Assembly: GCA_963781885.1 (NCBI GenBank)
Contig: CAWAHW010000001.1
Coordinates: 288,001-352,000 of the forward strand
Source of the DNA: an uncultured Spirochaetota bacterium
GTDB taxonomy: Bacteria > Spirochaetota > Spirochaetia > SZUA-6 > Fen-1364
Direction of reading: 5' to 3'
DNA length: 64,000 nt
A program made the position numbers and the translations under genes. The notes under the pieces are model-generated. The model was given only the letters and a program-made list of their open reading frames with translations, was not told where the DNA came from and ran no database searches. This document shows, piece after piece, positions 1,507-21,069 of this stretch. Numbering within the stretch: position 1 is the first letter of the stretch; each line of letters starts with the position of its first letter.

Positions 1507-2505
1507 TCACTCCTTCTCGAAGGGCGTTCCCAGGGCAGAGGGCGGTTTGACATTCAGCGCGCGCAGGACCTTCGCGACGCGTTTGCGGGCCCGTTCGGGC
1601 AGGCGCGCGAGCGACCTCTCCACCCACTCGGCGTTGCCGATGTTCACGAAAAGAAGCGTCAGGATCATGAGGGGAAACGGGGCCACTTGCAGGACCTGCG
1701 ACGGGATGCCGGGCAGGGCAGGCTGCAGGACGAGCCCCAGCCATTGAAGGAAGGAGAAAAGGTAGGCGCCAAAGGCGGCCCGGAACGGGTTCCAGCCGCC
1801 GAAGATGGTGATCGCAAGGACGATCCATCCCATGCCGTCCAGGCCGCTTATGGTTCCCTTCCACCCTGCCTTGACTGAAAGCGAATAGATGGGACCTGCC
1901 AGACCCGCGATGGCGCCGCCTGCCACCGTGTAGAGATAGCGCAGCCTGTTCACGTTCGCGCCCCGCACATATGCCGCGGAAGGCCGCTCACCGATGCCGC
2001 GCAGCAGAAGACCGGGCCGCGTGCGGAAGATGAAAATCCATGCGCCAACGATCAGGAGGAAGCTGAGATAGGTCATGATGTCCTGCTGGAAAAGGAGGAC
2101 GCCAAGACCGGGGATGTCTGCAAGAAAGGGGATGCGCAGCGTGGAAAGGCGCGGCCCTGTTTCACCCATGATGGGATTGCCCAGGAAGTAGGAAAGATCG
2201 CGGCAGAGGAGCGTGAGCACGAAACCCACGGCCACCTGCGACTGGCGCAGCGTGATGCTCGCGAATGCGAGCACGAGGGCCACGAGTCCGCCGATGAGCG
2301 CCCCCGCAAGGAATCCCAGCACGATGCTCCCGGTGGCAAGCGTCGCGGCAAAGCCGCCCATCGCGCAGAGCAGGATCTTCCCGTTCATCGACAGGTTGGT
2401 GACGCCGGCCCTCTCCGAGATGGTCTCCCCAATGGCGCCGAAGATCAGGGGAGCGGCGGATGTGAGCACGCCGGCAAGCCCGACAAGAATGACGGCCAGG
2501 CTCAT
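1507..2505 (-). CDS. Nucleoside/sugar ABC transporter permease
   Basis: MSLAVILVG…GETISERAGVTNLS, GMGWIVLAITIFGGW; ATGA overlap with the upstream permease. Confidence 0.9.
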   Translation of the reverse strand: MSLAVILVGLAGVLTSAAPLIFGAIGETISERAGVTNLSMNGKILLCAMGGFAATLATGSIVLGFLAGALIGGLVALVLAFASITLRQSQVAVGFVLTLLCRDLSYFLGNPIMGETGPRLSTLRIPFLADIPGLGVLLFQQDIMTYLSFLLIVGAWIFIFRTRPGLLLRGIGERPSAAYVRGANVNRLRYLYTVAGGAIAGLAGPIYSLSVKAGWKGTISGLDGMGWIVLAITIFGGWNPFRAAFGAYLFSFLQWLGLVLQPALPGIPSQVLQVAPFPLMILTLLFVNIGNAEWVERSLARLPERARKRVAKVLRALNVKPPSALGTPFEKE

Positions 2506-3548
2506 GAGGCGCCCTTTCCCATGAGCTTCTGGCGCACGCCCTGGCCCAGAAGCACAAAGAGCACAAGCGTGCCCTGGAGCACGCCGGCGAGGGAGGAATC
2601 CTGCCGCAGCACGATCGGCAGCTGGATGCTCCCCACGTTGAGCGCGGCAAAAAAGAGCGCCACGGGCGCGGCGAGTGCCGCGTTGAAATTGGCGAGCATC
2701 GCCACCATGAGACCGAGGTAGCCGTAGCCGCTGGAGATGGAAGGGATGAGGCGATGATAGACCGACGTGACCTGTATCGCGCCGGCAAGACCGGCAAAGA
2801 TGCCGCACAGCGCAAAGGAGAACATCATGTGCTGCCAGGTCGGGACGCCCAGGAGGTAGGCTGCCTTCTCATTGCGGCCCACGGCCTTCAAACGCAGGCC
2901 GAAATGCGTGCCGCGCAGCATGCCGTACACAAGGCCGATGCCGAGCACCGCGATCACCAGCGCCGACACGCTGAGGCGCGACTGCGGGGTGACCGTGATC
3001 ATCCACAGCGCGGGCGGGAAGGGCACCGTGCCGGACATCGAGGCAACACCCGGTCTTTTCCAGGGCCCGAAGATGAGCCAGAGGTTCAACGCCGAGGCCA
3101 CGAAGTTCAGGCCAAGACCGCCGAATATCTCGTTCACGCCGCCGAACGTCTTGAGCGCTCCCGCGAGCATCGCCCAGAGCGCTCCTCCCGCCATGCCGGC
3201 GACAACCGCGCAGGCCAGGATGAGCGCGGGGGGCACGCTGCTTGCCAGGAGCGTGCGCAGCATCCAGGTGGTGAAGACGGCCCCGAGGGTGATCTGCCCC
3301 TCGATGCCGATATTCCACAGCCCTGCCGTGAAGGTGACCAGAAGGCCCGCCGTTGAAAGCAGGAGCGGCACCCAGGCAACCAGGACATTCGCCGCGACAT
3401 CCCAGGAGCCGACGGCACCCAGGACGATATTCGCGTAGGCGGCAAGCGGCGGCGCGTGCGCGGCAAGCATGACGAGAGTCGTGAGGAGGAGGGCGAGTAC
3501 GATGGCTGCGACGCGCAGCGCGGCACGGGAAACGCCCGCCTTATGCAC
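2502..3548 (-). CDS. Nucleoside/sugar ABC transporter permease
   Basis: GLWNIGIEGQ, GYGYLGLMVAML motifs; multiple TM segments. Confidence 0.9.
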   Translation of the reverse strand: MHKAGVSRAALRVAAIVLALLLTTLVMLAAHAPPLAAYANIVLGAVGSWDVAANVLVAWVPLLLSTAGLLVTFTAGLWNIGIEGQITLGAVFTTWMLRTLLASSVPPALILACAVVAGMAGGALWAMLAGALKTFGGVNEIFGGLGLNFVASALNLWLIFGPWKRPGVASMSGTVPFPPALWMITVTPQSRLSVSALVIAVLGIGLVYGMLRGTHFGLRLKAVGRNEKAAYLLGVPTWQHMMFSFALCGIFAGLAGAIQVTSVYHRLIPSISSGYGYLGLMVAMLANFNAALAAPVALFFAALNVGSIQLPIVLRQDSSLAGVLQGTLVLFVLLGQGVRQKLMGKGAS

Positions 3549-5034
3549 GGACGGCCTCGCCGGTGAATGCTTCCCACCCCTTGCCGCCGATCAGCTCTCC
3601 GAGCCGCTCCACCGAGAGACCTTCGGCAGGGAGGGGAGGCGACATGCGCCCCGCGAAGAAGACGAGCACCCTGTCGCTGTACTGCAGCACCTCGTCCAGA
3701 TCGGCCGAGATGAAAAGGATCGCGGCGCCCTGCGCGCAGCGCTCCTTGAGCTTGCCCCAGATGTAGAGTGTCGACTCGATGTCGAGGCCGCGCGTGGGAT
3801 GCTCCAGGAGGATGAGGGCGAGCTCCTTTTTCAGGAGCGCCAGGAGCATGCGCTGCTGGTTGCCGCCAGACAGCGCTTCCACGGCATGGGACGGGGACCC
3901 CTTGATGTTGTAGGTGCCGATGCGCTCCGCTGCGACCGCCGCCGCGGCGCGCCTGTCGATGAAGGGACCGGCCCTGCCTTCCGAAAGCACGAAGTGCTCC
4001 GCGAGGCTGAGGCCGGGCACCAGCCCCTGCTCCAGCCGGGCAGCGGGCAGGTAGGCAACCCCTTTGCGCATGAAGGCATGGTAGGAGTGACCGGTCATGT
4101 CGCAATCCATGATGCCCACGCGTCCGGCCACCGTGCGCGCAAGACCGGCGCAGCTTGAGAGAAGGAGGGATTGCCCCGAGCCTTCCATGCCGGCAAGCCC
4201 GATCACCTCTCCCGCACGGGCGCGAAAGCTCACGTCCCTGATCTGGATCCGGGCGCTGTCGATGCTCACCGCCTCCAGGGAAAGGATTTCCCGCCCGGGC
4301 CGCGCCGCCGTGCGCGCACCGATGGACACATCCTTGCCGAACATCATGCGCACGAGCGCGCTCGTCTGGTACGGCGGCGCGGCCGCGCCCGCCAGTTGTC
4401 CCTGGCGCAGCACGGCGACCCGGTCACAGAGGAACTCGACGTCCTCCAGCTTATGGGAAACGAAGACCACGGTCATGCCCTGCCCGGCGAGCGATTTCAG
4501 CGTAGCAAAGAGCTTCTCCTTCTGCGGCTGGCTGATGCCGGTGGTGGGCTCGTCGAGGATGAGCACCCGGGCGCCCAGCCACAGGAGACGCAGGATCTCC
4601 AGCTGCTGGCGCTCCCCGACGGTGAGCGTGTCGACCCACGCGTCAGGATCGAGGTCGAATCCGAATTGCCCCGCGAGCGTTTTCAGGTCCCTCCCGGCGC
4701 GACGGCGGTCGGGAAAGAAGCCCCCTTTTCTGCCCAGGATGAAGTCATCGATGATGCGCAGGGGCGGGAAGTCCAGCGGGTCCTGGTGCAGCATGCCGAT
4801 GCCCAGCCGGATGGCGTCGGCGGGTGACGTGATGATCGTGCGGACCCCGTCCAGCAGGATGTCCCCTTCATCGGGGTGAAAGAACCCCGAAAGTATCTTC
4901 ATGAGCGTGCTCTTCCCGGCCCCGTTCTCCCCGAGGATGCCCTGGATGCACGCGGAAGGCACGGAAAGGCTGATGCCGGCATTGGCCTGTATCGTGCCGA
5001 AGGTCTTTCGGATGGAGCGGAGCTCGACGTTCAT
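3541..5034 (-). CDS. ABC transporter ATP-binding protein (tandem ATPase domains, CUT2 type)
   Basis: GENGAGKST Walker A, ILDEPT, second-domain LSGGNQQ. Confidence 0.93.
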   Translation of the reverse strand: MNVELRSIRKTFGTIQANAGISLSVPSACIQGILGENGAGKSTLMKILSGFFHPDEGDILLDGVRTIITSPADAIRLGIGMLHQDPLDFPPLRIIDDFILGRKGGFFPDRRRAGRDLKTLAGQFGFDLDPDAWVDTLTVGERQQLEILRLLWLGARVLILDEPTTGISQPQKEKLFATLKSLAGQGMTVVFVSHKLEDVEFLCDRVAVLRQGQLAGAAAPPYQTSALVRMMFGKDVSIGARTAARPGREILSLEAVSIDSARIQIRDVSFRARAGEVIGLAGMEGSGQSLLLSSCAGLARTVAGRVGIMDCDMTGHSYHAFMRKGVAYLPAARLEQGLVPGLSLAEHFVLSEGRAGPFIDRRAAAAVAAERIGTYNIKGSPSHAVEALSGGNQQRMLLALLKKELALILLEHPTRGLDIESTLYIWGKLKERCAQGAAILFISADLDEVLQYSDRVLVFFAGRMSPPLPAEGLSVERLGELIGGKGWEAFTGEAVRA

Positions 5035-5042
5035 TGCCGCCT

Positions 5043-5077
5043 AAAAACGAGGGGCGAGACGGATCCGCCTCGCCCCC
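5043..5077 (-). terminator. Intra-operon stem-loop with U tract after the binding-protein gene
   Basis: GGGGCGAG…CTCGCCCC inverted repeat followed by TCGTTTTT on the minus strand. Confidence 0.6.
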
Positions 5078-5096
5078 GGTATGCGCATGCCCTCGT

Positions 5097-6296
5097 CTAT
5101 TTCTGGACGGAGAGCCCTTCCATGCCCTGAAGGAGCTGGGGCAGGTACCAGATCTGCTGGTCGGTCGCGGCCTTGCCGCTTGCAAGGTACGCGGTGCCGT
5201 CCTGGAGTGCCAGCGGGCCTTTCCAGAGGTTGAGGCCGCCCGCAAGCTCCTTGATGAACTTGTCCACCGTGGTGGAGGCGGTTGCGGAAAGCGCGCCGCC
5301 CTTGTTGAACCCGACCGCGGTCGTGTCGGGGGCGTTGATGTTCTTCCAGTCGGGCGCGTTCCACTCGAAGTGGGATTTCCAGCTGCCGCTCATGGCGCTC
5401 TTCACGACGTTGACGTAGGCAGGGCCCCAGTTGAAATAGGGGACGCCGAGGTTGACGTTCGGCGCCATTTCCGAGGCCTTGTAGTAGTCGTAGGCGACCG
5501 CCCAGACCTTCTTGCCCTGGGCCGCGTACTTCACGGCTTCCGTGACGGCTTCCGTGGTATCGATGCCCGACACGACGACGTCATAGCCGCTGTTGAAGAA
5601 ATCATCCGCGACCTGCGACGGATCGGAGGTGACGCCGGGGATGTTGAACCAGAACCCGATCCAGGTGACCTTGAACTTCAGCTTCGCGGGGTCCTTCTTG
5701 AGATAATTCGTCCACGCGTAGCGCGCGCCGAGGTACACCGAGGAGGCGAGCCTGCGGGTTTCATCGTTGATGAGCGGCCCGAGGTAGCCGATCTGCCCGG
5801 TCTGCGTCGTCATGGCCGCGGCAACGCCCGCGATCATCTTGCTGAACTCCATGCGGCCCATGACGTTGATCATGTTCGGCATGTCCTGGTAGGTCTTCCC
5901 GTCCTTCCACACCTGGCTGCCCGAGCTCATGATGACGAAGATGTCCTTGTGCGCCAGGGCGAACTTCACGGCTTCGTCGGCCATGTCGTCGGAGCTGAAA
6001 ATGATGAGCTTCGCGCCCTGCGTCATGAGGCTCTCGGCGAGCTGGGAGACCGTGGTCCCCGGGCGGTCCGACGAGTTCGCCTTGTCGATGTACACCATCT
6101 TGGTGCCCGGGACCTTGTTGGTGACGTACTGGACGGCGTCGTAGTTCGCCTGACTCCAGCCCTGGTCGTTGTACGGGCCGACCATCACGAGCCCGATGGT
6201 GAGCGACGAGCCCGCCGCGGGCATGGCCTGTCCCCAGGCTGCCGACGCGGCCAGGACAACGGCCAGAATGAGAATGAGTGTGCGGAACCTCTTCAT
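5097..6296 (-). CDS. BMP family ABC substrate-binding protein (nucleoside/purine type)
   Basis: Signal peptide MKRFRTLIL…; GPYNDQGWSQ, WIGFWF, YFNWGPAY motifs; first gene of the ABC operon. Confidence 0.9.
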   Translation of the reverse strand: MKRFRTLILILAVVLAASAAWGQAMPAAGSSLTIGLVMVGPYNDQGWSQANYDAVQYVTNKVPGTKMVYIDKANSSDRPGTTVSQLAESLMTQGAKLIIFSSDDMADEAVKFALAHKDIFVIMSSGSQVWKDGKTYQDMPNMINVMGRMEFSKMIAGVAAAMTTQTGQIGYLGPLINDETRRLASSVYLGARYAWTNYLKKDPAKLKFKVTWIGFWFNIPGVTSDPSQVADDFFNSGYDVVVSGIDTTEAVTEAVKYAAQGKKVWAVAYDYYKASEMAPNVNLGVPYFNWGPAYVNVVKSAMSGSWKSHFEWNAPDWKNINAPDTTAVGFNKGGALSATASTTVDKFIKELAGGLNLWKGPLALQDGTAYLASGKAATDQQIWYLPQLLQGMEGLSVQK

Positions 6297-6431
6297 GAAC
6301 CCCCCCTTTTGTGGTGCGTCGTCCATCTCCTCACGTCATTGCGAAAACACCTCGACACGAGGGAATGCACGACTCGTCTGTTTGAATATGCATGAATATA
6401 CAACGATCGAGTGACGCGTCACAAGCGGGCG

Positions 6432-7706
6432 CTATGGCCGCGTCCGCTTCCGATCGCGCGGAAAAAGGGTCGCCTCTTTCACGCTCGCCAGGCCCAGTAT
6501 CTTCTGCGTGAGCCTCTCCATGCCAATGGCAAAACCCCCGTGCGGCGGGCAGCCGTACTTGAAGATCGAGAGGTAGTCCGCAAGACCTTCCGGGTTCAGA
6601 TCGAAGGCCTGAAGGTTTTCCATCAGCATGTCGTAGCGATTGATGCGAATGCTCCCCGACGTCACCTCCAGGCCGCGGAACAGGAGGTCAAAGGACTTCG
6701 TACGATTGTTCTCCGCGGGGAAGGTGTAGAAAGGCCGTGACTTGCGCGGGTAGGCAAAGACAAAGACTGCCTCCACGCCCGCCGACTTCATGGCCCAGTC
6801 GCACAGTGCGCGCTCGCCCTCCGGGCTTATCTCGTAGACCTTCTTGCCCGTCTCCTTGCTCACGATCTCCTTCGCCTCGTCGTGGGAAACCCGGGGAATG
6901 CGGGAGCAGAGGTCAGGATCGGGCACCGTTGCCTTCCATGCGTCGAGGTCCTTCTGATTGGAGGAACGGACCCCCGCGAAGATGGCCGCGAGAATGCCTG
7001 CCTCCAGGTCCATCAGCTCCTGCTCGGACTCGATGAAGGCCATCTCCACGTCCAGTGACACAAACTCGTTGATGTGCCGCGGCGTGTCGTGCTTCTCGGC
7101 CCGATACGCCGGACCGATCTCGAAGACGCGCTCCAGGCCCGCGGCGATCATGACCTGCTTATAGATCTGCGGCGACTGGGTGAGGTAGACCTTCGTGTCG
7201 AAGTAATCCACGGAGAAAAGCCCCGTCCCGCCTTCCGTGCCCGTGCCGATGAGCTTGGAGGTCTTGATCTCCGTGAAGCCCTGGCTGCGCAAATATTCGG
7301 CAAAACAGCGCAGGACCGTGGACTGCACGCGAAAGATGGAGAGGATCGAAGGGTTGCGCAGCGCGATCATCCGGTTGTCGAGTATCGATTCAAGCGACGT
7401 CTTTCCCGGGTCCTGGTTGACGGGGAAGGGCAGGTCCGGGGCGGCAGGGGAGACGACCTGCATGCTCTGCACGCGCACCTCCACGCCGCCAGGCGCCTTC
7501 TCATTCGCGGCGACGGTTCCCTGGACCTGGATGACCGTTTCCACCGTCACGTCGGGCTTCGCGTCGAAGACGAGCTGGCCCATGCCGCTTCTGTCCCGCA
7601 AGAGCACGAATGAAACGCCCCCCAGGTCCCGGATGCGATGCACCCAGCCGCTCAGGCTGACCGTGCTCCCCACGGCGCTGGGAAGCTCAGAGACAAGCGT
7701 CCGCAT
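6432..7706 (-). CDS. aspS: Aspartate-tRNA(Asp/Asn) ligase, short archaeal-type, likely non-discriminating
   Basis: [44 protein letters not shown]; 424 aa with no GAD insertion; KAPGG loop. Confidence 0.93.
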
Positions 7707-10101
7707 TTCCCTGCTCCATTCGTGAAAGCATTTCCTCATCCGTGTCCGAGAAGGACGCGCAGACCACGAGCTTCGTCCACGCAGACTCCGTGGTGAGCGG
7801 GCCCAGGGGAATGGCCCCTTCGCGCCACAGCTCGTGGGAGCTCGTGTAGCGGGAGAAGTCCACGATGCCCTCCTGCTGCGAGGTGCAGAATATGTGCACG
7901 CCCTTCTCCCGCGCGGCAAGGAGCGCACGTCGCAGCGAGTAGGGGGAGTCGCGGAGATTTGCCGTGCCCGTGTCATAAAGCTCGAGCACGAAGTTCTTCA
8001 CGCCGCGATCCATGAGCTCGATGAGATGGTCGCCCCGCATGCCCGGGTAGACGCGGAGGATGAGGGAGGTGTCGATGGCGGCCTCCAGGCGCGCGCGCAA
8101 CGCGTCGCGGTCCTGCGCGAAGGGCACCTCCGCAAAGAGCGGGCTCCCGGTGTGACAGGGTTTCGCCATGTTCCAGTTGCGAAACCCGTCGGCAGCGATG
8201 CGCTCGAATTTCAGATTGACCGGCGAAAGGATCCGGCCCCCGAATGCGACATACACCCCGGGCTCCATCTCCTCCGCGGCCTGTATCGCGCGGCGCAGCG
8301 TGGGAATGGCGTCGCTGCCCGGCCAACCCGCCGGCTGCAGGGCTGCGGCAAGCACGATGGGCACGGGAGGCCGGGGGAAAAGCCAGTACACGAGCGACGC
8401 CGTGTAAGACAAGGTGTCCGTGCCGTGCGTCACGACGATGCCCGCCGCCCTTCCGCCGCGCAGCCTTTCGTCGATGAGGGAAATGAGCCGCGCCCAGTCA
8501 TCGGGGGTGATCTCTTCCGAAAGGATGCGGCCGACCTCACCCTCTTCGAATGCGATCTTTCGGGAAAAGGCGCCTTCCGCTTCCAGGAGGCGCATGATCT
8601 CCGCGGGGTCGCCTGCCCCGACGTCGCCTTGCGCGGAGGTGGTGCCCGCAATGGCGCCGCCCAGGGAAAGGATCTGGATCACCGACACGGCGAGCTTCTG
8701 CTTCACCAGGGATTGCACGCGCGCGGGGTCGGCGCGACCCGAGGTGGCGTGCATGATCTCACCGATCAGGAACGTGGTGGGCCTGCTGTCGCCGCCGCGG
8801 ATGGTGGCCACCGCCGCCGGGTGAGCAGCCATGACCTTTTCAATATAGCCGGCCAGGACGCCGGGGTCCGTGATCTGTTCCCAGCCCTTTTCCCGGATTA
8901 TCGCCGCGGGATCCTTGTCCTCCGCGAATATCGCTTCGACCACGGACTTGGCGATGCGGCCGTGGATGCGCTTGTCCGCCAGGAGCTGGAGCATTTCCGC
9001 GAAGCGCTCCGGTGTGAGCGGGCTCTGGGAAAGAGACGCCCCTGTCCGATTGAGATGCTTCTTCACGTCGGAGGCAAGCCAGAGCGCCGCGCTTTTCGCA
9101 TCCGCTCCCCGCTTCACCGAGGCTTCGAAGAAATCCGCCGTTTCCCTCTCTTCGCAGAGGAAGTCAGCCTGGTCCTCCGACAGCCCCATCGCGTCGATGA
9201 AGCGCTTCTTGCGCGCCTCGGGAAGCTCCACGAGTGCCCTCTCCACGCCGCGGAGGAAGTCCGCATCCGGGGCGAAGGGCGGCAGGTCGGGCTCGGGGAA
9301 ATAGCGGTAGTCGGACGAGCTCTCCTTTGTCCGCATGCTCTCCGTCACGTCGCGGTTCTCGTTCCACAGGCGCGTCTCCTGCGTGACGGTGCCTCCCCGG
9401 CTCAGGATCTCCGTCTGGCGCTCGATCTCGAACGTGATCGCTTTGCGGACGAACTTGAAGGAGTTGAGGTTCTTCACCTCGACCTTGCACCCCAGTCCCT
9501 GCCCCTCGAGATTGACGGACACGTTGGCATCGCAGCGCAGCGAGCCTTCCTCCATGTTCCCGTCGCAGACCCCGAGATAGCGCACCATGCGGCGGAGCTG
9601 TTGGAGGAAGACCTCCGCCTCTTCCCCGACCTCCAGGTCGGGCTGCGTGACGATCTCCAGGAGAGGCGTACCGGCCCGGTTGTAGTCCAGGAGAGTCATG
9701 TCCCCGGCATGGATCATCTTGCCGGCGTCCTCCTCCAGGTGCACCTCCCGGATGCGGACGCGCTTGCGGCGCTTGCGCAGCTCGATGTCCACCCAGCCGT
9801 CGGTGCCCAACGGGGAGCGGAACTGCGAAATCTGGTAGTTCTTCGGCAGGTCGGGATAGAAGTAGTTCTTCCGCTCGAAGAGCGTGGAGGCGGCAAGGGT
9901 GCAGTTCAGCGCGCGCGCAACGACGTAGCCCATGCGGATCGCTTCCGCGTTCAGGGCGGGGAGCACCCCAGGATAGCCCATGCAGACGGGGCAGACATTC
10001 GTGTTGGGCTCGGAGCCGAAGGCGGCGCGGCAACCGCAGAAGACCTTCGTCCGCGTGAGAAGCTGGGTGTGGACCTCAAGACCGAGGTAGGAGACGTACA
10101 T
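7687..10101 (-). CDS. gatB: Asp/Glu-tRNA amidotransferase subunit B fused to a C-terminal L-asparaginase/GatD-like domain
   Basis: GLEVHTQL, RKNYFYPDLPKNYQISQ, YRYFPEPDL, then in the same frame LSLGGAIAG…GIVVTHGTDTLSYTAS…LTTESAWTKL; GGAGGT RBS before ATG 10101. Confidence 0.93.
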   Translation of the reverse strand: MYVSYLGLEVHTQLLTRTKVFCGCRAAFGSEPNTNVCPVCMGYPGVLPALNAEAIRMGYVVARALNCTLAASTLFERKNYFYPDLPKNYQISQFRSPLGTDGWVDIELRKRRKRVRIREVHLEEDAGKMIHAGDMTLLDYNRAGTPLLEIVTQPDLEVGEEAEVFLQQLRRMVRYLGVCDGNMEEGSLRCDANVSVNLEGQGLGCKVEVKNLNSFKFVRKAITFEIERQTEILSRGGTVTQETRLWNENRDVTESMRTKESSSDYRYFPEPDLPPFAPDADFLRGVERALVELPEARKKRFIDAMGLSEDQADFLCEERETADFFEASVKRGADAKSAALWLASDVKKHLNRTGASLSQSPLTPERFAEMLQLLADKRIHGRIAKSVVEAIFAEDKDPAAIIREKGWEQITDPGVLAGYIEKVMAAHPAAVATIRGGDSRPTTFLIGEIMHATSGRADPARVQSLVKQKLAVSVIQILSLGGAIAGTTSAQGDVGAGDPAEIMRLLEAEGAFSRKIAFEEGEVGRILSEEITPDDWARLISLIDERLRGGRAAGIVVTHGTDTLSYTASLVYWLFPRPPVPIVLAAALQPAGWPGSDAIPTLRRAIQAAEEMEPGVYVAFGGRILSPVNLKFERIAADGFRNWNMAKPCHTGSPLFAEVPFAQDRDALRARLEAAIDTSLILRVYPGMRGDHLIELMDRGVKNFVLELYDTGTANLRDSPYSLRRALLAAREKGVHIFCTSQQEGIVDFSRYTSSHELWREGAIPLGPLTTESAWTKLVVCASFSDTDEEMLSRMEQGNADACL

Positions 10102-10103
10102 CG

Positions 10104-11487
10104 CTACCTCCATCCTGCCGGAAAGCCCGGAGCATCGGGGGACGGGAAGGCCTTCTCCAGCTCTCGGCAGGCAGCGAAAAGCGCGTCCTCCCCGAAGGCA
10201 GGAGCGAGGAACTGCATGCCGATGGGCAGCCCCGCCTCCACCGCGGCGGGAAAGGAGAGGGCGGGCAGCCCCGCGAGATTGGCGGCGCAGGTGAAGATGT
10301 CGGCGAGCTTCTGCGTGAAAGGATCCGCATCGGCGCCTCCCCGTGTGAAAGGCGGCACCGGATAGACGGGCATGAGCACGAGGTCCACGCCGCTGAATGC
10401 CTTCTGGAAGTCATTGCGGATTGCCGTACGGATCTTCTGCGCCCGCAGGTAGTACTCGTCCTGAAAGCCCGAGCGCAGGACGTAGGTGCCCAGGAGGATG
10501 CGCAGCTTCACCTCGGGCCCCAGCCCTGCCGTGCGGGAGGCAACCGTCATGGCATCCGGCGTCTCCGCGCGCGGCGAGCGTTTTCCGTAACGCACGCCGT
10601 CGAAACGGGCCAGGTTTGCGCTCGCCTCTGCCGTGGCAATGACATAATAGGAGGAGACAACGTGGTCCAAGGTCGGAAACGATATCTCGTGCACCGCGTG
10701 GCCCAGCTCTTCCAGCCTGCGCCGTGTCTTTTCGAAGGTCTTCTTCACGTCGGCATGCATGGGCACGTCGGCGCACTCCCGCGGCACGCCGATGGAGAGC
10801 TTCCCCCGGGGCTTGCCTGCCCGGCTGCCACGCGAGGGACGACTGGTCGAGCGCATCGGCGCCGCGCATGAGGGAAAAGGCCTTCTCCGTCATGTCCACG
10901 GTCTTTGCCATGACGCCGATCACTTCCAGGGACGAGGCGTAGGCGACAAGCCCGAATCGGGAGACTGCTCCCCAGGTAGGCTTCAGGCCGTAGATGCCGC
11001 AAAAGGAAGCCGGCTGCCGGACGGATCCGCCCGTGTCGCTTCCCAGCCCGAATGCCGCAAAGCCGGCGGCAACCGCCGCGGCAGACCCGCCGCTTGAGCC
11101 CCCCGGCACCCGGTCGGGGTTCCACGGGTTTCGCGTGACCTTGAGGGCGGAGTTCTCCGTGGACGAGCCCATGCCGAACTCGTCGAGATTCGTCTTTCCG
11201 GCAACCACCGCGCCCGCCTTCTGCAGCCGTTCCACCACCGTGGCCGAGTAGGGAGAGACGAAATCGGAGAGCAGCCGGGAGCCGCAGGTGAGTCGGAAGC
11301 CGCGGACGGCGATATTGTCCTTGACGGCAAATGGAACGCCCGCAAGCGGACCCTCCGGGGCGGAATCCGCCGCGCCGAGAACGGGATCGAACTGGAGGAA
11401 GCTGCCCACGGCGTCATCGCGCGACGCGACGAAAGCCTTCCACCGCTCCCGTGATTCCGCATGTGCCGCCAGGCCCAGCCAGTCCAT
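10104..11487 (-). CDS. gatA: Amidotransferase subunit A, split by a one-base frameshift near 10803-10811 (probable sequencing error)
   Basis: N-terminal frame has [30 protein letters not shown]; C-terminal frame has [28 protein letters not shown]; removing one G from CCCCGGGGG joins them. Confidence 0.9.
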
Positions 11488-11522: not shown

Positions 11523-11801
11523 TCAGAGTACGTTCGGAATGACGATGAAGCGGTCCTCGCGCTCGGGAGAGCTGTCGAGGAGCGTGGCGGAGAGCGACGG
11601 CCCGGTTTCGACGTCCGCGCGAAGGCGATTCTCGCGCAGAAGCGGGTGGGTGGTCGGCTCCAAGCCTTGAATGTCGATCTCTTTCATGTGGGAGAAGTGC
11701 TGGAGCATCTGCTCGACGGCGACTCCGAGCCTGCCAAGCTCATCATCGGTCAGGGACAGGCGGGCCATGCGTGCCGTGAGCTTGAGCTCCGTGGCGTCCA
11801 T
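11523..11801 (-). CDS. gatC: Amidotransferase subunit C
   Basis: TARMARLSL…LEPTTHP…LRAD…FIVIPNVL; first gene of the gat operon. Confidence 0.9.
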
Positions 11802-11807
11802 GGACAC

Positions 11808-12068: not shown

Positions 12069-13490
12069 GTGGTAAAAAAGGATTTCCCCAAGATACATTT
12101 CTACGATCAGGATCTCGTATCGCTCTATGATGAAACGTGGCTTCTGATCAAGGACTATTGGAAAAAGGGCACCGAGGCAAACGGGTTTCACGGCCGCTAC
12201 TTCGCGCACCCCGACAGCGTGCGCATCAACCAGTTCGATGCCTGCTTCGCCACTTTCTTCCTCGTCTATTCCAATCGCATATTCCCCGTGATGTCCTGCC
12301 TGGACAATTTCTATTCCCGGCAGGAGGAGTCGGGCGCCATCCGCGGCGAATACCGGGAATCCGACGGCAAGCCCGTCCACTCGAAGGACAATCCCAAGGG
12401 CGTTCTCCCGCCCCTTTTCGCCTGGGCGGAGTTCAATATCTACCACAAGCTCGGGGTGAAGAAGCGCATCCGCGAAGTGCTGCCGGTGCTGGAGAAGTAC
12501 TTCCGCTGGATCGAAGAGAACTTCAAGACGGCCAGCGGCATGTACTCCGTGCCGCTCGCCGCGACAATGATGGAAAACTCGCCCCGGGACGGCATGTTTT
12601 ACCCCATCGATTTCAACTCGCAGATGGCGCTCTCCGCGTTCTATATCTCGGAGCTCGCCGACATCATCAATGACAAGGAGACAAACTATACCTACAAAAA
12701 GGCCTACTTCTCGCTGAAGACGAAGATCAACGCCCTGATGTGGGACGAGCGGGACGGCTTCTACTACGACCTGGACGAATCGGAAAAGCGGCTCAAGGTG
12801 AAAACTATCGCCTCGTTCTGGCCGCTGATCGCCGAGATTCCCAACGAGGCGCGCGGGGAAAGGCTCATCGAGCACCTCGTGGATCCCCACGAGTTCGGCA
12901 TCGAGAACCCATTCCCCACGCTGGCCGTCAAGGACAAGAGATTCGACACGCAGGGGTCGGGATATCGGGGATCCGTCTACCCGCCGTACAATTACATGAT
13001 CATCAAAGGCCTGGAGAAATACAAAAGGCACGACCTCTCGCGGGAGTTCGCCATCCGGCACCTCTATCACGTACTGGACGGGCTGTACACGACCAGCGGC
13101 AAGAAGGGCTCCCTCTACGAGGCATATGCCCCGCACACGGAAGGCCCGGCGAAATGGCCGGGGAAAAAGGGCTTCCCCCGCACGATGTTTGCGCCCTACA
13201 CGGCGCTCACGACCATTTCCCTCATGCTCGAGAATATCATCGGGCTTGATATCTCCCTGCCGCGGAAGACCGTGGACTGGACCATCCCCACGCTGGAGGC
13301 AATGGGCATCGACGACCTTGCGCTGAAACGCAACCTCATCTCCATCCTTAGCGCAAAAAGCAGCAGGGGCTGGGAAGTGCACCTGGAAAGCGAAAAGCTG
13401 TATTACCTGACCATCGACCTTTTTGGCGCGCGCAGCAAAACGTTGCCCATTCCGTCAGGCAGATGCTCCATCCTGGTGGATAAGCTGTAG
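12069..13490 (+). CDS. GH63/MGH1-like (trehalase-fold) glycoside hydrolase
   Basis: PPLFAWAE, MENSPR, LMWDERDGFYYD, YRGSVYPPYNYMIIKGL, LYEAY; no signal peptide. Confidence 0.8.
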   Translation: MVKKDFPKIHFYDQDLVSLYDETWLLIKDYWKKGTEANGFHGRYFAHPDSVRINQFDACFATFFLVYSNRIFPVMSCLDNFYSRQEESGAIRGEYRESDGKPVHSKDNPKGVLPPLFAWAEFNIYHKLGVKKRIREVLPVLEKYFRWIEENFKTASGMYSVPLAATMMENSPRDGMFYPIDFNSQMALSAFYISELADIINDKETNYTYKKAYFSLKTKINALMWDERDGFYYDLDESEKRLKVKTIASFWPLIAEIPNEARGERLIEHLVDPHEFGIENPFPTLAVKDKRFDTQGSGYRGSVYPPYNYMIIKGLEKYKRHDLSREFAIRHLYHVLDGLYTTSGKKGSLYEAYAPHTEGPAKWPGKKGFPRTMFAPYTALTTISLMLENIIGLDISLPRKTVDWTIPTLEAMGIDDLALKRNLISILSAKSSRGWEVHLESEKLYYLTIDLFGARSKTLPIPSGRCSILVDKL

Positions 13491-13560: not shown

Positions 13561-14148
13561 CTAGAAGGCGTTGCGTCCCTTGAATGAACGCATGAGGGTC
13601 TGCTTGTCGGCGTACTCCAGATCGCCGCCAACGGGAAGCCCAAAGGCAATGCGTGAGACCTTGACGCCCGTTTCCTTGAGCGCCTTCACCATGTAAAGGG
13701 CCGTGGTCTCGCCTTCAACGGTCGGGTTTGTCGCGAGTATCACTTCCTGCACGCCGCCTCTTTTCACCCTTTCGACGAGCGAGCCGATGCGGAGGCTGTC
13801 AGGTCCGATCCCATCGATGGGGGAGATCGCTCCCATGAGGACGTGGTAGAGCCCGTGGTGCTCGTGGATGGATTCGATGGTGAGCACGTCGCGGGGCTCC
13901 TCCACGACGCAGATCGACGCGCGATCGCGCGACGCGTCCGTGCAGATGCTGCACGGGTCAACGTCTGTATACGTTCCGCACATGCTGCACGGCCGGATCG
14001 TCTCCCGCAGCCGGCCCAGGTCTTCCGCGAGCGCCCGCACGAGCGATTCGTCGGTGCGCAGGAGGTAGTAGGCGATGCGCGACGCGCTTTTTCTCCCCAG
14101 GCCGGGAAGACGCGCGAGATTGCCCATCAGCCTCTCAAGGGCATTCAT
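13561..14148 (-). CDS. recR: Recombination mediator RecR
   Basis: LPGLGRKSA, C4 zinc finger, ATNPTVEGETTA, GGDLEYAD. Confidence 0.97.
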   Translation of the reverse strand: MNALERLMGNLARLPGLGRKSASRIAYYLLRTDESLVRALAEDLGRLRETIRPCSMCGTYTDVDPCSICTDASRDRASICVVEEPRDVLTIESIHEHHGLYHVLMGAISPIDGIGPDSLRIGSLVERVKRGGVQEVILATNPTVEGETTALYMVKALKETGVKVSRIAFGLPVGGDLEYADKQTLMRSFKGRNAF

Positions 14149-14150
14149 GC

Positions 14151-14474
14151 TCAGAGCCCGAACATCCCCGGCGGCAGGCCCAGCATCCCCGTTGCCTGGG
14201 AGACCTCGTCGCGTATCTTTTCCTTTAGCCGTGCAAGCGCGTCCGTCATGGCGGCCAGCACGAGGTCCTGCAGCATCGGCACGTCGCGTGGGTCCACCGC
14301 CTCCGGGGCGATGGTCACCTTCTCCACCAGCATCTGGCCGTTCATCTCCACGGTCACCATGCCGCCGCCGGCGGAGCCGGTGACGCGCACGGTCTTCAGC
14401 TTCTCCTGGATCTCCCCGACGCGGGATTGCAGCCCCTGGAGCTGCTTCAGCATCTCAAACGGATTTGTCGCCAT
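14151..14474 (-). CDS. ybaB: YbaB/EbfC nucleoid-associated protein
   Basis: GSAGGGMVTV, LQDLVLAA; between dnaX and recR. Confidence 0.93.
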   Translation of the reverse strand: MATNPFEMLKQLQGLQSRVGEIQEKLKTVRVTGSAGGGMVTVEMNGQMLVEKVTIAPEAVDPRDVPMLQDLVLAAMTDALARLKEKIRDEVSQATGMLGLPPGMFGL

Positions 14475-16008
14475 GCCCTTCCCCTTTCACGACCTCGCCG
14501 CGGAACACCTTGCGGAGCAGCTCCACCCTCTGGTCCACCTTCACCGGTTCCACGTGCGCTTCGCTATAGACCGAGCGCACGCGCTTCACCGTCGGCAGAA
14601 ACGCCGCAACGCGCGTCGTGAGCATATCCTTGTCCGTCTGCACGACCTCGCCCTGGAATCGGTCCCGTGCAGAAAATGTCATGACGAGGTCTTCCCCTTC
14701 CAAGGACGCGGAGAGGACCCGGTCCAGGGCCGAGGAGAGCGCCGGCTTCTCCCGGCGCAGCGCCTCGCCGATCTTTTTGATCACCTGCACGGGCTCGATC
14801 GCTGCCGCATCCACCTGCACCGGCACGGCGGCAGGCGCCGCGGCCGCGATGTGCACCCCCGGCGTGCCGACGATCTGAGCGCGCATATCCTGCAAAGCCT
14901 GGCGCATCTCCTGCGGGCTGATGAGCGCGTCCAACTCTGAAAGGCGCGTGAGGAGAAGCTCGAGCTCGAAACGCTGGTTGAGGGAAAACCGTATGTTGCG
15001 GTACAGGCTCAGGAGCAGCTCGATCGCCTTCTCGATCTGCTCCGCCCGCAGGGATTGGAGGACGCCGGCGTCGAAATCCTCCGGCGCATAGCCCAACAGG
15101 GTGTCCTTCGTGATGCCGCTCTTCAGGAAGAGCAGGTTGCGGAAATACTCGGTGAGGTTGACGACGAACTGCTCGAGGGAGACCCCCGACGCGAGCACGG
15201 TGTCCACGCGCTCGAGGACCTTGCCGACGTCTCCTGCGCGCAAAAGACGCGCGAAATCGTTCAGCTCGTCGATGCCGAGCACCCCGAGCTTCTCCCGGAT
15301 GCGGTCCAGCGTGAGGGAGCCGTCCGCGAAAGACGCCACCTGGTCGAGCAGTGTGTACGCGTCGCGCAGGGACCCGGTCGCCTCCTTCGCGATCCAGATC
15401 AGCGCGCGGTCCTCCGCCTGGAGACCCAGCTCACCGGCCGCCTCGCGCAGCTTCTCCTTGATCTCCCCCGTGGAGATGAGACGGAAATTGTACTGCTGGC
15501 ACCGGGAGCGGATGGTGGCAGGGACCTTGTGGACCTCGGTGGTGGCAAAGATGAACACGATGTAGGGCGGCGGCTCCTCGATGGTCTTCAGGAGCGCATT
15601 GAAGGCGCTGTTGGAGAGCATGTGCACTTCATCGATGATATACACCTTGAAGCGCCCCACATTCGGCGCGAAGAGCACCTCGTCGCGGATGGCCCGCACG
15701 TCGTTCACGCTCGTGTTGGAGGCGCCGTCGATCTCGATGACGTCGAGGCTTGCCCCGCGCGCGATCTCCGTGCAGCTCGCGCAGACCCCGCAGGGTGAAT
15801 CCGTCGGGCCCTTCTCACAGTTCAGCGCGCGCGCGAGGATCCGCGCGACGGAGGTCTTCCCCACGCCGCGGGGGCCGGCAAAAAGGTAGGCGTGCGCGAT
15901 GCGCCCCTGGCGGATGGAGCTGGTGAGTGTGGCGGTGACGAACTCCTGGCCGACGAGCTGGAGAAAGTTCTGGGGCCGCTTGCGCGTCGAGGTGACTTCA
16001 TACGACAT
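14455..16008 (-). CDS. dnaX: DNA polymerase III subunit gamma/tau
   Basis: GPRGVGKTS, EIDGASN, IIDEVHML, SRCQ. Confidence 0.97.
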   Translation of the reverse strand: MSYEVTSTRKRPQNFLQLVGQEFVTATLTSSIRQGRIAHAYLFAGPRGVGKTSVARILARALNCEKGPTDSPCGVCASCTEIARGASLDVIEIDGASNTSVNDVRAIRDEVLFAPNVGRFKVYIIDEVHMLSNSAFNALLKTIEEPPPYIVFIFATTEVHKVPATIRSRCQQYNFRLISTGEIKEKLREAAGELGLQAEDRALIWIAKEATGSLRDAYTLLDQVASFADGSLTLDRIREKLGVLGIDELNDFARLLRAGDVGKVLERVDTVLASGVSLEQFVVNLTEYFRNLLFLKSGITKDTLLGYAPEDFDAGVLQSLRAEQIEKAIELLLSLYRNIRFSLNQRFELELLLTRLSELDALISPQEMRQALQDMRAQIVGTPGVHIAAAAPAAVPVQVDAAAIEPVQVIKKIGEALRREKPALSSALDRVLSASLEGEDLVMTFSARDRFQGEVVQTDKDMLTTRVAAFLPTVKRVRSVYSEAHVEPVKVDQRVELLRKVFRGEVVKGEGHGDKSV

Positions 16009-18784: not shown

Positions 18785-18966
18785 CGCAAGAGGAATATCC
18801 CATTTTCCGGGCGGTGGCAATAGAAGTAGACACCTGTATGCTGAACCTTCGTAGGGCATTTCCACGCCGTTTCCCGAAAAAAAATGGCTCTTGCGTCCGC
18901 AGGGGACTTGCGTTATACCAATGCTTCGCCAACAATCAGTTTGCAGCATCTCTGGGAGGGGAAAAC

Positions 18967-21069
18967 GTGTTTGTATCGATTAAAAAGCGCAATGGCGTCA
19001 TTGCTTCCTTTCGCCCTGACAAGATTACAACAGCGATCAAACGAGCAGGCGAAGCGACCGGAGAGCTCGACGAGGAGACAGCCGCACGGCTCACGCTGCG
19101 CGTGCTGAATCTCGCCCAGCAGGCGCTTCCGGGCAGCATCCCGTCCGTCGAGCAGATCCAGGACATCGTGGAGGAGGTGCTCATCTCCTCCCAGTTCAAG
19201 CGCACGGCAAAGGCCTACATCATCTACCGCGAGCAGCACGCCCGCATCCGCGAGATCGTCTCTCGCGCGGACGTCGACCTGATCGACCGCTATCTCGACA
19301 GGGCCGACTGGCAGGTCAATGAAAACTCGAACATGGGCTACTCCCTGCAGGGACTGAACAACTACGTCTCTTCGGAGATCAGCAAGATCTACTGGCTGAA
19401 CAAGATCTATCCGCCGGCAATACGTCTGGCCCATTCCGAAGGAGATTTCCACCTCCACGATCTGGGCATCCTTTCGGTCTATTGCGTGGGATGGGACCTG
19501 GAGGACCTGCTCGCGCAGGGATTCGGCGGCGCGGCGGGCAAGGTGGAGAGCAAGCCCGCGCGCCATTTGAGAAGCGCGCTCGGCCAGGTCGTGAACTTTT
19601 TCTACACGCTCCAGGGCGAGGCGGCGGGCGCCCAGGCCTTCTCCCACTTCGACACGCTCCTCGCTCCCTTCATCCGCTACGATCGCCTCGGCTTCGACGA
19701 GGTGAAGCAGGCGCTCCAGGAGTTCGTCTTCAACATCAACGTGCCCACGCGCGTCGGCTTCCAGACCCCTTTCACCAACATCACGATGGACCTCAAGGTG
19801 CCCTCGATGTTCCGCGACAAGCCCGTGATTGTGGGCGGCGAATACCAGGAGGCCGCCTACGGGGAGTTCGAGAAGGAGATGGCGGTCTTCAATCATGCTT
19901 TCCTGGAGGTGCTCGCCGAGGGGGACGCCAAGGGGCGCGTTTTCACGTTCCCCATACCGACCTACAACATCACCAAGGACTTCGACTGGGACGACCCGGC
20001 GCTCGACGTGCTCTGGCGCGTCACGGCGCGGTACGGCATCCCCTACTTCTCCAACTTCGTGAACTCCGACATGTCCCCCGAGGACACCCGCTCGATGTGC
20101 TGCCGGCTGCGTCTGGACATCCGCGGCCTGGAAGGCGAGAAGTCGCTTGCGAAGCGCGGGGGCGGCCTCTTCGGCGCCAACCCGCTCACGGGGTCGATCG
20201 GCGTGGTCACCATCAACATGCCGCGCCTGGGCTATCTGTCCGCTGACGAGGGCGAGCTCCTTCAGCGCCTTGGCGAGCTCATGGATCTCGCCAGCACATC
20301 GCTGGAGATCAAGCGCAAGATGCTTGAAAGCTTCACGGATGGGAACCTCTATCCTTACACGCGATATTACCTCCGCGGCATCCGGGAGCGAACCGGCCGG
20401 TACTGGAAGAATCACTTCTCCACGATCGGGCTGGTGGGTCTCAATGAGGCCTGCGTGAACCTCACGGGCGTCAACCTGGGCTCGGAGTCGGGCCAGCTCT
20501 TTGCCCTGCGCGTGTTGGACTACATGCGGGAGAAGCTCCTTTCATACCAGGAAAAAACGGGCAACAACTACAACCTGGAAGCCACCCCTGCCGAAGGGAC
20601 CTCCTACCGGCTTGCGAAGATCGACGCGGAGAAGTATCCCGGCATCAAGTTCGGAAACGACGGCGAGGCGTCGCAGAAGCCGTTCTACACGAACTCATCG
20701 CAGCTTCCCGTTCAGTACTCGGATGACCTCTTCGAGGTGCTCGACCTGCAGGACGAGATCCAGACCAAGTACACCGGCGGCACGGTCGTGCACCTCTTCG
20801 TCGGCGAGGAGATCTCCGACCCGCGCAATGTGCGGAAGCTCGTGAAGCTCATCTGCGAGCGCTACCACCTGCCCTATTTCACCATCACTCCGACATTCAG
20901 CGTCTGCCCGACGCACGGGTACCTGGCGGGCCGGCAGGAAAAATGCCCGACCTGCGGTGCAGTCTCCGAGGTGTATTCGCGCGTGGTGGGTTACCTTCGG
21001 CCCGTCAATCAGTGGAACGAGGGCAAGGCAGAGGAGTTCAAGGCGCGGAAGACCTTCAAGCTCGCCTGA
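18967..21069 (+). CDS. nrdD: Anaerobic (class III) ribonucleoside-triphosphate reductase
   Basis: N-terminal ATP cone, SMCCRL, EATPAEG, CPTH…CPTC, SRVVGYLRP glycyl-radical motif; GTG start after GGGAGG. Confidence 0.95.
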   Translation: MFVSIKKRNGVIASFRPDKITTAIKRAGEATGELDEETAARLTLRVLNLAQQALPGSIPSVEQIQDIVEEVLISSQFKRTAKAYIIYREQHARIREIVSRADVDLIDRYLDRADWQVNENSNMGYSLQGLNNYVSSEISKIYWLNKIYPPAIRLAHSEGDFHLHDLGILSVYCVGWDLEDLLAQGFGGAAGKVESKPARHLRSALGQVVNFFYTLQGEAAGAQAFSHFDTLLAPFIRYDRLGFDEVKQALQEFVFNINVPTRVGFQTPFTNITMDLKVPSMFRDKPVIVGGEYQEAAYGEFEKEMAVFNHAFLEVLAEGDAKGRVFTFPIPTYNITKDFDWDDPALDVLWRVTARYGIPYFSNFVNSDMSPEDTRSMCCRLRLDIRGLEGEKSLAKRGGGLFGANPLTGSIGVVTINMPRLGYLSADEGELLQRLGELMDLASTSLEIKRKMLESFTDGNLYPYTRYYLRGIRERTGRYWKNHFSTIGLVGLNEACVNLTGVNLGSESGQLFALRVLDYMREKLLSYQEKTGNNYNLEATPAEGTSYRLAKIDAEKYPGIKFGNDGEASQKPFYTNSSQLPVQYSDDLFEVLDLQDEIQTKYTGGTVVHLFVGEEISDPRNVRKLVKLICERYHLPYFTITPTFSVCPTHGYLAGRQEKCPTCGAVSEVYSRVVGYLRPVNQWNEGKAEEFKARKTFKLA

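Follow-up and report, generated by a model that had tools for sequence, protein, structure and literature searches.

What is an asparaginase fold doing at the end of an amidotransferase subunit? The question is raised by a locus of an uncultured Spirochaetota bacterium (GenBank assembly GCA_963781885.1, contig CAWAHW010000001.1, positions 288,001 to 352,000; these 64,000 nucleotides are the window referred to throughout), in which the gene for GatB continues in frame into such a fold. The extension is here named asnL and the fused gene gatB::asnL. GatCAB and GatDE are the textbook enzymes of indirect aminoacyl-tRNA synthesis, GatD being a dimer at the core of the GatDE complex; to our knowledge, a GatB with an extra C-terminal domain has not been described. 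The original prediction, made from the sequence of the window, took the fusion either for a hybrid amidotransferase with a second amide-handling module or for an Asn/Asp/Gln-sensing module built into the transamidation complex. The best explanation, to which a probability of about 0.5 is given, is that asnL is a non-hydrolytic dimerising module, possibly one that binds asparagine or aspartate, on a GatCAB dedicated to asparagine.

The open reading frame (ORF) of gatB::asnL, at 7687..10113 of the minus strand, has 808 residues; in public gene calls Met5 (10101) is taken as the start, which leaves 804 residues and matches the end coordinate of 10101 originally proposed. GatB proper, with its cradle, helical and YqeY tail domains, takes up 8689..10101 (minus strand, residues 5-475 of the 808-residue frame), and asnL together with the stop codon follows at 7687..8688 (minus strand, residues 476-808). 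The Pfam scan that had been suggested as a check places four domains on this single chain, all above their curated cut-offs: GatB_N (residues 10-286, 379 bits), GatB_Yqey (residues 327-474, 144 bits), Asparaginase (PF00710, residues 479-648, 103.5 bits against a cut-off of 22.5) and Asparaginase_C (PF17763, residues 685-794, 45 bits against 34.6). The junction contains no stop codon, nor is there a linker between the two parts, since in an AlphaFold2 model of the full chain (59-row alignment, mean predicted local distance difference test (pLDDT) 87.2, predicted template modelling score (pTM) 0.57) the last YqeY helix spans residues 463-474 and the first strand of asnL, at 478-483, begins three residues on. 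The in-frame fusion that had been read from the sequence is thus borne out by the reading frame and the four domains, on the minus strand, and the motifs on which it was based are all present in the translation (RVQSLVKQKL, LSLGGAIAG, GIVVTHGTDTLSYTAS, PIVL, GVYVAFGG, YPG, VLELYDTG and LTTESAWTKL), the final L of RVQSLVKQKL being L474, at nucleotides 8694-8692. Logan contigs of one public DNA run, which held 0.33 of the sampled words, covered 23 of 30 bins at a depth of at most 4.5; no piece in them bridged the GatB/asnL junction, the nearest ending at 8623 and the bin 8608-8751 having a depth of 0.26.

The fusion is real and old. A scan of GTDB with one genome per species matched at least 600 stretches, at least 567 of which encode a relative; the locus counts given here rest on 80 loci kept from that scan, 25 of operon type and 55 others. 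A GatB-like part stands in frame upstream of asnL in 79 of the 80, the last being cut by a contig start, and asnL is never free-standing among them. Independent assemblies with the same in-frame join rule out an artefactual fusion, and close relatives encode the two parts jointly rather than separately. When asnL alone was used as the query of a database search, at least 670 proteins were found at E <= 0.001 among 8000 candidates scored; among the 120 matches listed, GatB_Yqey and the two asparaginase domains are present in all and GatB_N in 111, the remaining nine being 459-642 residues long. In an exhaustive search of representative sequences, 39 clusters matched at E <= 1e-30, 14 of them 743-817 residues long with the match at the C-terminus, and below that level came stand-alone asparaginases of 313-396 residues.

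Within the order to which the window belongs, asnL occurs in 39 of 92 genomes (E <= 1e-36) and, with the window's own genome excluded, in 22 of 24 members of the family labelled f1, 12 of 21 of f6 and 4 of 5 of f8, with no genome at this threshold in families f2, f3, f4, f5 and f7. In an even sample of the phylum it was found in 13 of 401 genomes, all of the class Spirochaetia, across several families of which it has been kept; titles among the GTDB matches include Treponema sp., Gracilinema caldarium, Alkalispirochaeta sp. and Spirochaetia. In a quick maximum-likelihood tree of 70 rows (25 operon-type, 27 of the second form described below, taken as every second of 53, and 18 stand-alone asparaginases, with no GatD sequences), the fused domains fall into a single clade, separate from the stand-alone asparaginases, on a branch with Shimodaira-Hasegawa-like approximate likelihood ratio test support of 100, a topology consistent with a single fusion event. 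Matches to asnL in genus g23 (for example G069:C1:4835960-4836940) are reported with '1 TGA' near their end, which reflects an alignment overrunning the stop rather than recoding, since the ORFs of loci L048 and L050 end 12-15 nucleotides before the alignment does.

The fold of asnL is that of an asparaginase whose active site has been partly dismantled. The nearest solved structure by sequence is the asparaginase of Pyrococcus horikoshii (1wls, 3.2e-30), the sequence match to GatD being 2e-19, and Foldseek gives template modelling (TM) scores of 0.78-0.81 against archaeal type I asparaginases and a TMq of 0.77 against GatD 1zq1. The domain falls below the cut-offs of both groups, scoring 107.6 bits against the 260.5 of the type I subfamily model TIGR00519, and 103.8 against 324 and 106.5 against 310 with the GatD models TIGR02153 and NF003217. 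The N-terminal domain of GatD is absent from it, alignments beginning at chain residue 93 of 2d6f and 137 of 1zq1. In what PMC8256714 says of class-1 asparaginase catalysis, Thr12, Tyr25, Thr89, Asp90 and Lys162 (EcAII numbering) are given as crucial. When these residues are mapped through alignments to 1wls and to Escherichia coli AnsA, the nucleophile Thr12 aligns with Ala487 of asnL and the relay Tyr25 has no tyrosine counterpart, facing Asp497 in the AnsA alignment or Ala500 (domain residue 25) in that to 1wls; Thr565, Asp566 and Lys635 match Thr89, Asp90 and Lys162. The catalytic pentad is therefore incomplete, though both Pfam domains and the fold are those of an asparaginase.

The loss of the nucleophile extends well beyond the window. 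At the corresponding column, the 24 operon-type species have Ala in 23 and Thr in one, with Ser in none, and the 53 species of the second form have Ala in 36, Thr in 7, Ser in 7, Val in 2 and Gly in one. Database proteins of at least 740 residues (n = 119) have Ala in 110, Thr in 3, Ser in 5 and Arg in one, and of 106 stand-alone homologues of 300-400 residues, 97 carry the motif GGT and none GGA, no motif being found in nine. Judged by these residues, asnL probably no longer hydrolyses amides, and the loss of the catalytic threonine makes an appendage for dimerisation or asparagine binding a likelier reading than a second enzyme.

Elsewhere the pocket has been strictly retained. Across 77 species, S532, E533, E534, H563, G564, T567, N633, E711, G716, C743, Q746, Q747 and E776 are unchanged and T565, D566, K635, W647, N648, S745 and W763 nearly invariant, and the invariant columns persist among sequences 38-78% identical to the asnL of the window; the family also has motifs of its own, namely LSEE, WLF, SPLNLKF, GFRNWN, ELYDTGT and CTSQQ. 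Complex prediction with two copies of asnL gave a score of 0.84, the best of three controls scoring 0.01. Among proteins of known structure, 20 of 30 one-chain pairs and 1 of 23 single chains reach that mark, counts that hold only roughly for a prediction made, as here, with a custom 47-row alignment. The asnL runs agreed in at least 88% of contacts with a partner pLDDT of at least 81. Most of the invariant residues fall in the predicted interface, where, for example, T717 and Y713 are in contact with D566' and E533' of the partner chain, so that the model has the composite-site geometry of real asparaginases.

The GatB to which this module is attached is canonical. Residues 6-475 match the GatB equivalogs NF004012 (613.6 bits, cut-off 338) and TIGR00133 (539 bits, cut-off 315), the GatE models giving 148 bits against a cut-off of 456, and the fused gene holds the one GatB_N match in its genome. 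H15, K91, Q94, Q97, E153, D195, N197, E212 and K214, which we take to be catalytic or metal-binding positions of GatB, are identical in all 24 operon-type species, as are E127, E128 and the zinc cysteines C26, C28, C41 and C44. As expected of GatB, gatB::asnL is encoded directly downstream of gatC and gatA. Profile matches and gene order confirm the predicted operon gatC-gatA-gatB::asnL-aspS, all of it on the minus strand: gatC (11523..11807, 94 residues) is the first gene, with 58.4 bits to TIGR00135 against a cut-off of 47.1; gatA (10104..11487) matches Pfam Amidase and TIGR00132; and aspS (6432..7706) encodes an archaeal-type, non-discriminating aspartyl-tRNA synthetase (AspRS), with 514 bits to NF003483, the model for aspartate--tRNA(Asn) ligase (cut-off 353), and 401.5 bits to TIGR00458 (cut-off 368). 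The ATG of aspS at 7706 gives a 20-nucleotide overlap with the 3' end of gatB::asnL, with GGAG upstream at 7714-7717, and the overlap recurs in relatives; from this arrangement aspS appears to be translationally coupled to the fusion gene. In the loci of operon type, form i in what follows, which include those of the window's genus, the GatB part is 62-85% identical to that of the window, and the order gatC-gatA-gatB::asnL-aspS is complete in 23 of the 25, the other two being cut by contig ends.

A probable product of this operon is suggested by the rest of the genome, which encodes an asparaginyl-tRNA synthetase (AsnRS; 465 bits against a cut-off of 343), a glutaminyl-tRNA synthetase (GlnRS; 672 bits) and a second AspRS of bacterial type. 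In the assembly, which is 92.6% complete, no AsnB match exceeded its cut-off and AsnA was not found. GlnRS is near-ubiquitous in the order (77 of 92 genomes). With both AsnRS and GlnRS present, AsnA not found and no AsnB match above its cut-off, the most likely role of the operon is to make asparagine on tRNA(Asn), the tRNA-dependent pattern of Thermus and Deinococcus; tRNA-dependent asparagine synthesis and the Thermus transamidosome were reportedly worked out by Becker & Kern in 1998, Min et al. in 2002 and Bailly et al. in 2007. As a separate observation, a 165-residue single-domain asparaginase is encoded outside the window (L002 1300-1797 (+), corresponding to G000:C1 at about 132.6-133.1 kb; Pfam Asparaginase, 100 bits), with intact TGGT and HGTDT motifs and a resemblance to short asparaginase chains of 185 residues in the PDB. 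Most relatives have weak matches in comparable positions, which suggests that it is conserved, and it may be the genome's real asparaginase.

One gene of the operon is broken in the assembly, a point that the original prediction had passed over. The N-terminal part of gatA shares its frame with ORF 10411..11487, whereas the C-terminal part is found in ORF 10104..10856, so that the Pfam Amidase matches to positions 41-219 and 229-444 sit in different frames, TIGR00132 giving 284 + 213 bits on the two halves; the motifs GGSSGGS and GSDTGGS are both found. The frame changes at a C4G5 homopolymer tract (10803..10811, minus strand) that has one base too many for open reading, the gene being free of other defects, and the two halves share one frame in all eight relatives that have the whole region. 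A comparison with two congeners, covering 104 congener ORFs that match the genome at >=60% identity (38,654 aligned residues, in which the two relatives overlap, or some 60-80 kb), yielded three frame-split genes, all of them close to homopolymers, namely gatA and, outside the window, those at G000:C1:282449-284253 and 369395-370473. The assembly comprises 7 contigs for 4.6 Mb, and split matches are also seen in other few-contig genomes of the genus. The split is thus probably a (long-read) assembly error. A genuine frameshift, in a strain left without GatA and dependent on asnL or free ammonia, is rather improbable: the assembly does show gatA in two frames, and its intact rpoB and rpoC indicate that it is not riddled with errors, but the shift falls inside the C4G5 run, two further genes are split near homopolymers in the stretch compared, similar few-contig genomes have split matches, gatA is otherwise undamaged and intact in the relatives, and asnL would have to do without its nucleophile. 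Logan contigs of the only public run found include none over 10768-10911, where the tract lies. That asnL might have replaced GatA can be rejected, since gatA is in one frame in 8/8 relatives.

Outside the operon the fusion takes a second shape. Form ii, with 54 loci (L052-L122) from Treponema, Gracilinema and others, an example being L065 4594-6996 in a metagenome-assembled genome of Gracilinema caldarium, has a GatB-like part 30-44% identical to that of the window and no gatC, gatA or aspS within 6 kb. In its 53 species the residues listed above for GatB have been replaced with great regularity (H15R in 53, E153R in 51, D195N in 52, E212K in 52 and K214R in 52), K91 is never kept and the zinc cysteines are gone in about half. 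On these substitutions form ii appears to be an uncharacterised pseudo-GatB family. Five complete genomes representing other orders in the class differ in this respect: G414, G420 and G438 carry form ii beside a separate canonical GatB, G408 has a divergent fused copy only, and G471 has a fused copy only, whose GatB part scores canonical. The neighbours of form ii are an MGH1-like hydrolase, Ppx/GppA, a tetratricopeptide repeat protein and TraB, among which no functional clue was found beyond shared synteny; because the hydrolase is also a neighbour of the operon, form ii genes appear, by their position, to descend from the operon through the loss of gatC, gatA and aspS. Two copies also occur in f8 genomes (G038, G089, G090, G091 and G031) and in G023, which have a plain gatB in frames of 488-638 residues next to the fused gatB::asnL, both scoring canonical for GatB_N although GlnRS is present. 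A division of labour in these genomes, with the plain GatB serving glutamine and the fused one asparagine, is not supported, GlnRS being found in 77/92 genomes of the order and 5/5 of f8.

In the favoured reading of asnL as a non-hydrolytic module, the only GatB of the genome, extended as it is by asnL, would be co-transcribed with gatC, gatA and the non-discriminating AspRS, and GatA would stay the source of ammonia. The module would probably pair two GatB chains through the 'intimate dimer' interface of asparaginases, giving a (GatCAB)2 that matches the dimeric AspRS, and the composite pocket at this interface may bind, but not turn over, a small ligand, for which L-Asn and L-Asp are the most plausible candidates. 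Binding of such a ligand could let transamidation respond to the asparagine supply, a feedback role that is plausible because asparagine is what the pathway produces and can also be used in its free form by AsnRS. To go by the titles of their PDB entries, mutants of this fold in which the Thr is changed to Ala were crystallised with intact L-Asn (7c8x, 5dnc). The sensing module for asparagine, aspartate or glutamine that had been suggested at the outset is compatible with the data, since the rest of the asnL pocket is invariant. A more specific version is that the Thr-to-Ala pseudoenzyme traps free L-Asn at the dimer interface and thereby switches the (GatCAB)2-AspRS complex off whenever asparagine is at hand, with form ii of Treponema and its relatives serving as a wholly non-enzymatic amino-acid-sensing or tRNA-binding regulator; this is tentatively offered as one possibility among several. 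If it were true, asnL would act as an integral product sensor for a machine of tRNA-dependent amino-acid synthesis.

Several observations weigh against the favoured reading. The pTM of 0.57 leaves the placement of asnL relative to GatB undefined in the full-length model, and the dimer prediction may have passed through likeness or model memory, because dimers of this fold have already been solved. Parts of PMC8256714 describe a non-catalytic allosteric asparagine site at the dimer interface of E. coli AnsA, with Arg240 as its landmark; this residue aligns with the invariant E711 of asnL, so that retention of that particular site is not supported. The nucleophile column holds Thr in 8 and Ser in 7 of the 77 species across both forms, and some weak or altered activity is possible given that three of the five catalytic residues (T565, D566 and K635) survive. 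On the side of physiology, at 92.6% completeness a missing AsnA or AsnB could lie in unassembled sequence, and within the order 8 of the 39 genomes with the fusion (and 20 of the 53 others) have AsnB, so that the tRNA is not the sole route to asparagine everywhere.

The alternative that survives best dispenses with the ligand: asnL would be a scaffold that dimerises GatCAB or docks the dimeric AspRS as a strut of the transamidosome, its residues being conserved for the interface alone. The homodimer score of 0.84, so far from that of the controls, the position of most invariant residues in the predicted interface and the coupling of aspS to the fusion gene all suit such a role, which is a possible but doubtful account, for asnL and its invariant residues are kept equally in the 54 form ii loci, where gatA, gatC and aspS are all missing from the surrounding 6 kb, and a plain interface could dispense with T565, D566 and K635, which in real asparaginases belong to the pocket. 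Decidedly less probable is that asnL is an active second amidase, feeding ammonia to GatB as GatD does to GatE, whether in a hybrid of GatCAB and GatDE or with asparagine as the donor. This is the second amide-handling module of the original prediction, and it is disfavoured here by Ala487 at the nucleophile position, by the same alanine in 23 of 24 operon-type species, by the absence of the relay tyrosine and by the retention of GatA in the eight relatives. The fold is indeed shared with GatD (TMq 0.77 to 1zq1, 104-107 bits with the GatD models), T565, D566 and K635 are kept, and a minority of species have Thr (8/77) or Ser (7/77) at the nucleophile position; however, asnL lacks the GatD N-terminal domain and is attached to the mobile YqeY tail, not to the cradle domain, and hydrolysis of asparagine would undo the product of the pathway itself. 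Least credible of all is a functionless relic of an ancestral active fusion now being lost, which would account for the missing catalytic residues and for the faster evolution of asnL than of GatB (46-51% against 68-69% identity to L018-L020, from other families of the order) but is opposed by the absence of a stop from the fused frame in all of the 79 loci extracted, by the many invariant columns among sequences 38-78% identical to the window's and by the retention of asnL across several families of the class.

The surroundings of the operon are otherwise unremarkable. The divergent upstream neighbour, at 12069..13490 on the plus strand, is the MGH1-like glycoside hydrolase (PF22422, 112.5 bits), a homologue of which (trehalase or GH63-like) is found divergently upstream in 21/25 operon-type and 46/55 other loci; this synteny is unusually stable across the class and has no obvious functional link. 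Further upstream of the operon lie recR and dnaX (13561-16008, minus strand), and the anaerobic ribonucleotide reductase NrdD is encoded at 18814-21069 on the plus strand. Downstream of aspS, at 1507-6326 on the minus strand, follows an ATP-binding cassette transporter set comprising a Bmp-type binding protein, an ATPase and two BPD_transp_2 permeases.

The pairing of these two folds in the manner of GatDE was thought to be archaeal, and bacteria have independently joined them in one chain, in a spirochete version that kept GatA and disabled the asparaginase. The family is large, with at least 567 species-level loci that include gut and termite Treponema, and it offers a natural experiment on the origin of pseudoenzymes, on transamidosome cohesion and on product control of tRNA-dependent asparagine synthesis. 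No published description of the GatB-asparaginase architecture was found in the full-text literature searched, most subscription journals lying outside it, which agrees with the statement in the original prediction that no characterised example was known; yet the architecture is common in databases, where the named homologues are labelled simply as GatB of 'Spirochaetia bacterium', and it is because of this label that asnL and the non-catalytic form ii are invisible in current annotation. A search for the terms in question in the bacterial asparaginase census PMC9500103 returned no mention of fusions, GatB, GatD or Spirochaet.

Among known systems, the archaeal Glu-tRNA(Gln) amidotransferase GatDE (1zq1, 2d6f) likewise teams an asparaginase fold with a kinase/transamidase of GatB type. 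In the spirochete the two form one polypeptide, with the asparaginase fold placed C-terminally behind the YqeY tail; GatA and GatC have been retained and the partner is a true GatB instead of GatE, while asnL is without the N-terminal domain of GatD, has its nucleophile changed from Thr to Ala and is of bacterial origin, from Spirochaetia. Bacterial GatCAB with a non-discriminating AspRS has the same gene set, and the spirochete genome has it alongside AsnRS and GlnRS, with AsnA not found and no AsnB match above its cut-off, but the spirochete GatB is some 330 residues longer and the operon is fused and, as it appears, translationally coupled. The best sequence and structure matches of asnL, the archaeal type I L-asparaginases (1wls; Pyrococcus furiosus 4q0m; Thermococcus kodakarensis 5ot0), share with it the two-domain fold, the HGTDT motif, the lysine and a predicted intimate dimer, whereas asnL is 25-27% identical to them, has alanine at the nucleophile position, has no relay tyrosine and possesses invariant motifs of its own. 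E. coli AnsA, a type I enzyme activated by asparagine, provides in the parts of PMC8256714 that treat it a precedent for a non-catalytic asparagine site at an interface of this fold, although asnL has an invariant glutamate where the allosteric Arg240 sits and the same site is not conserved. The laboratory mutants BlAsnase T13A (7c8x) and guinea-pig T19A (5dnc), whose PDB titles speak of uncleaved bound L-Asn, carry the same substitution at the same position as asnL, in which, by contrast, it is natural and has become fixed in a clade.

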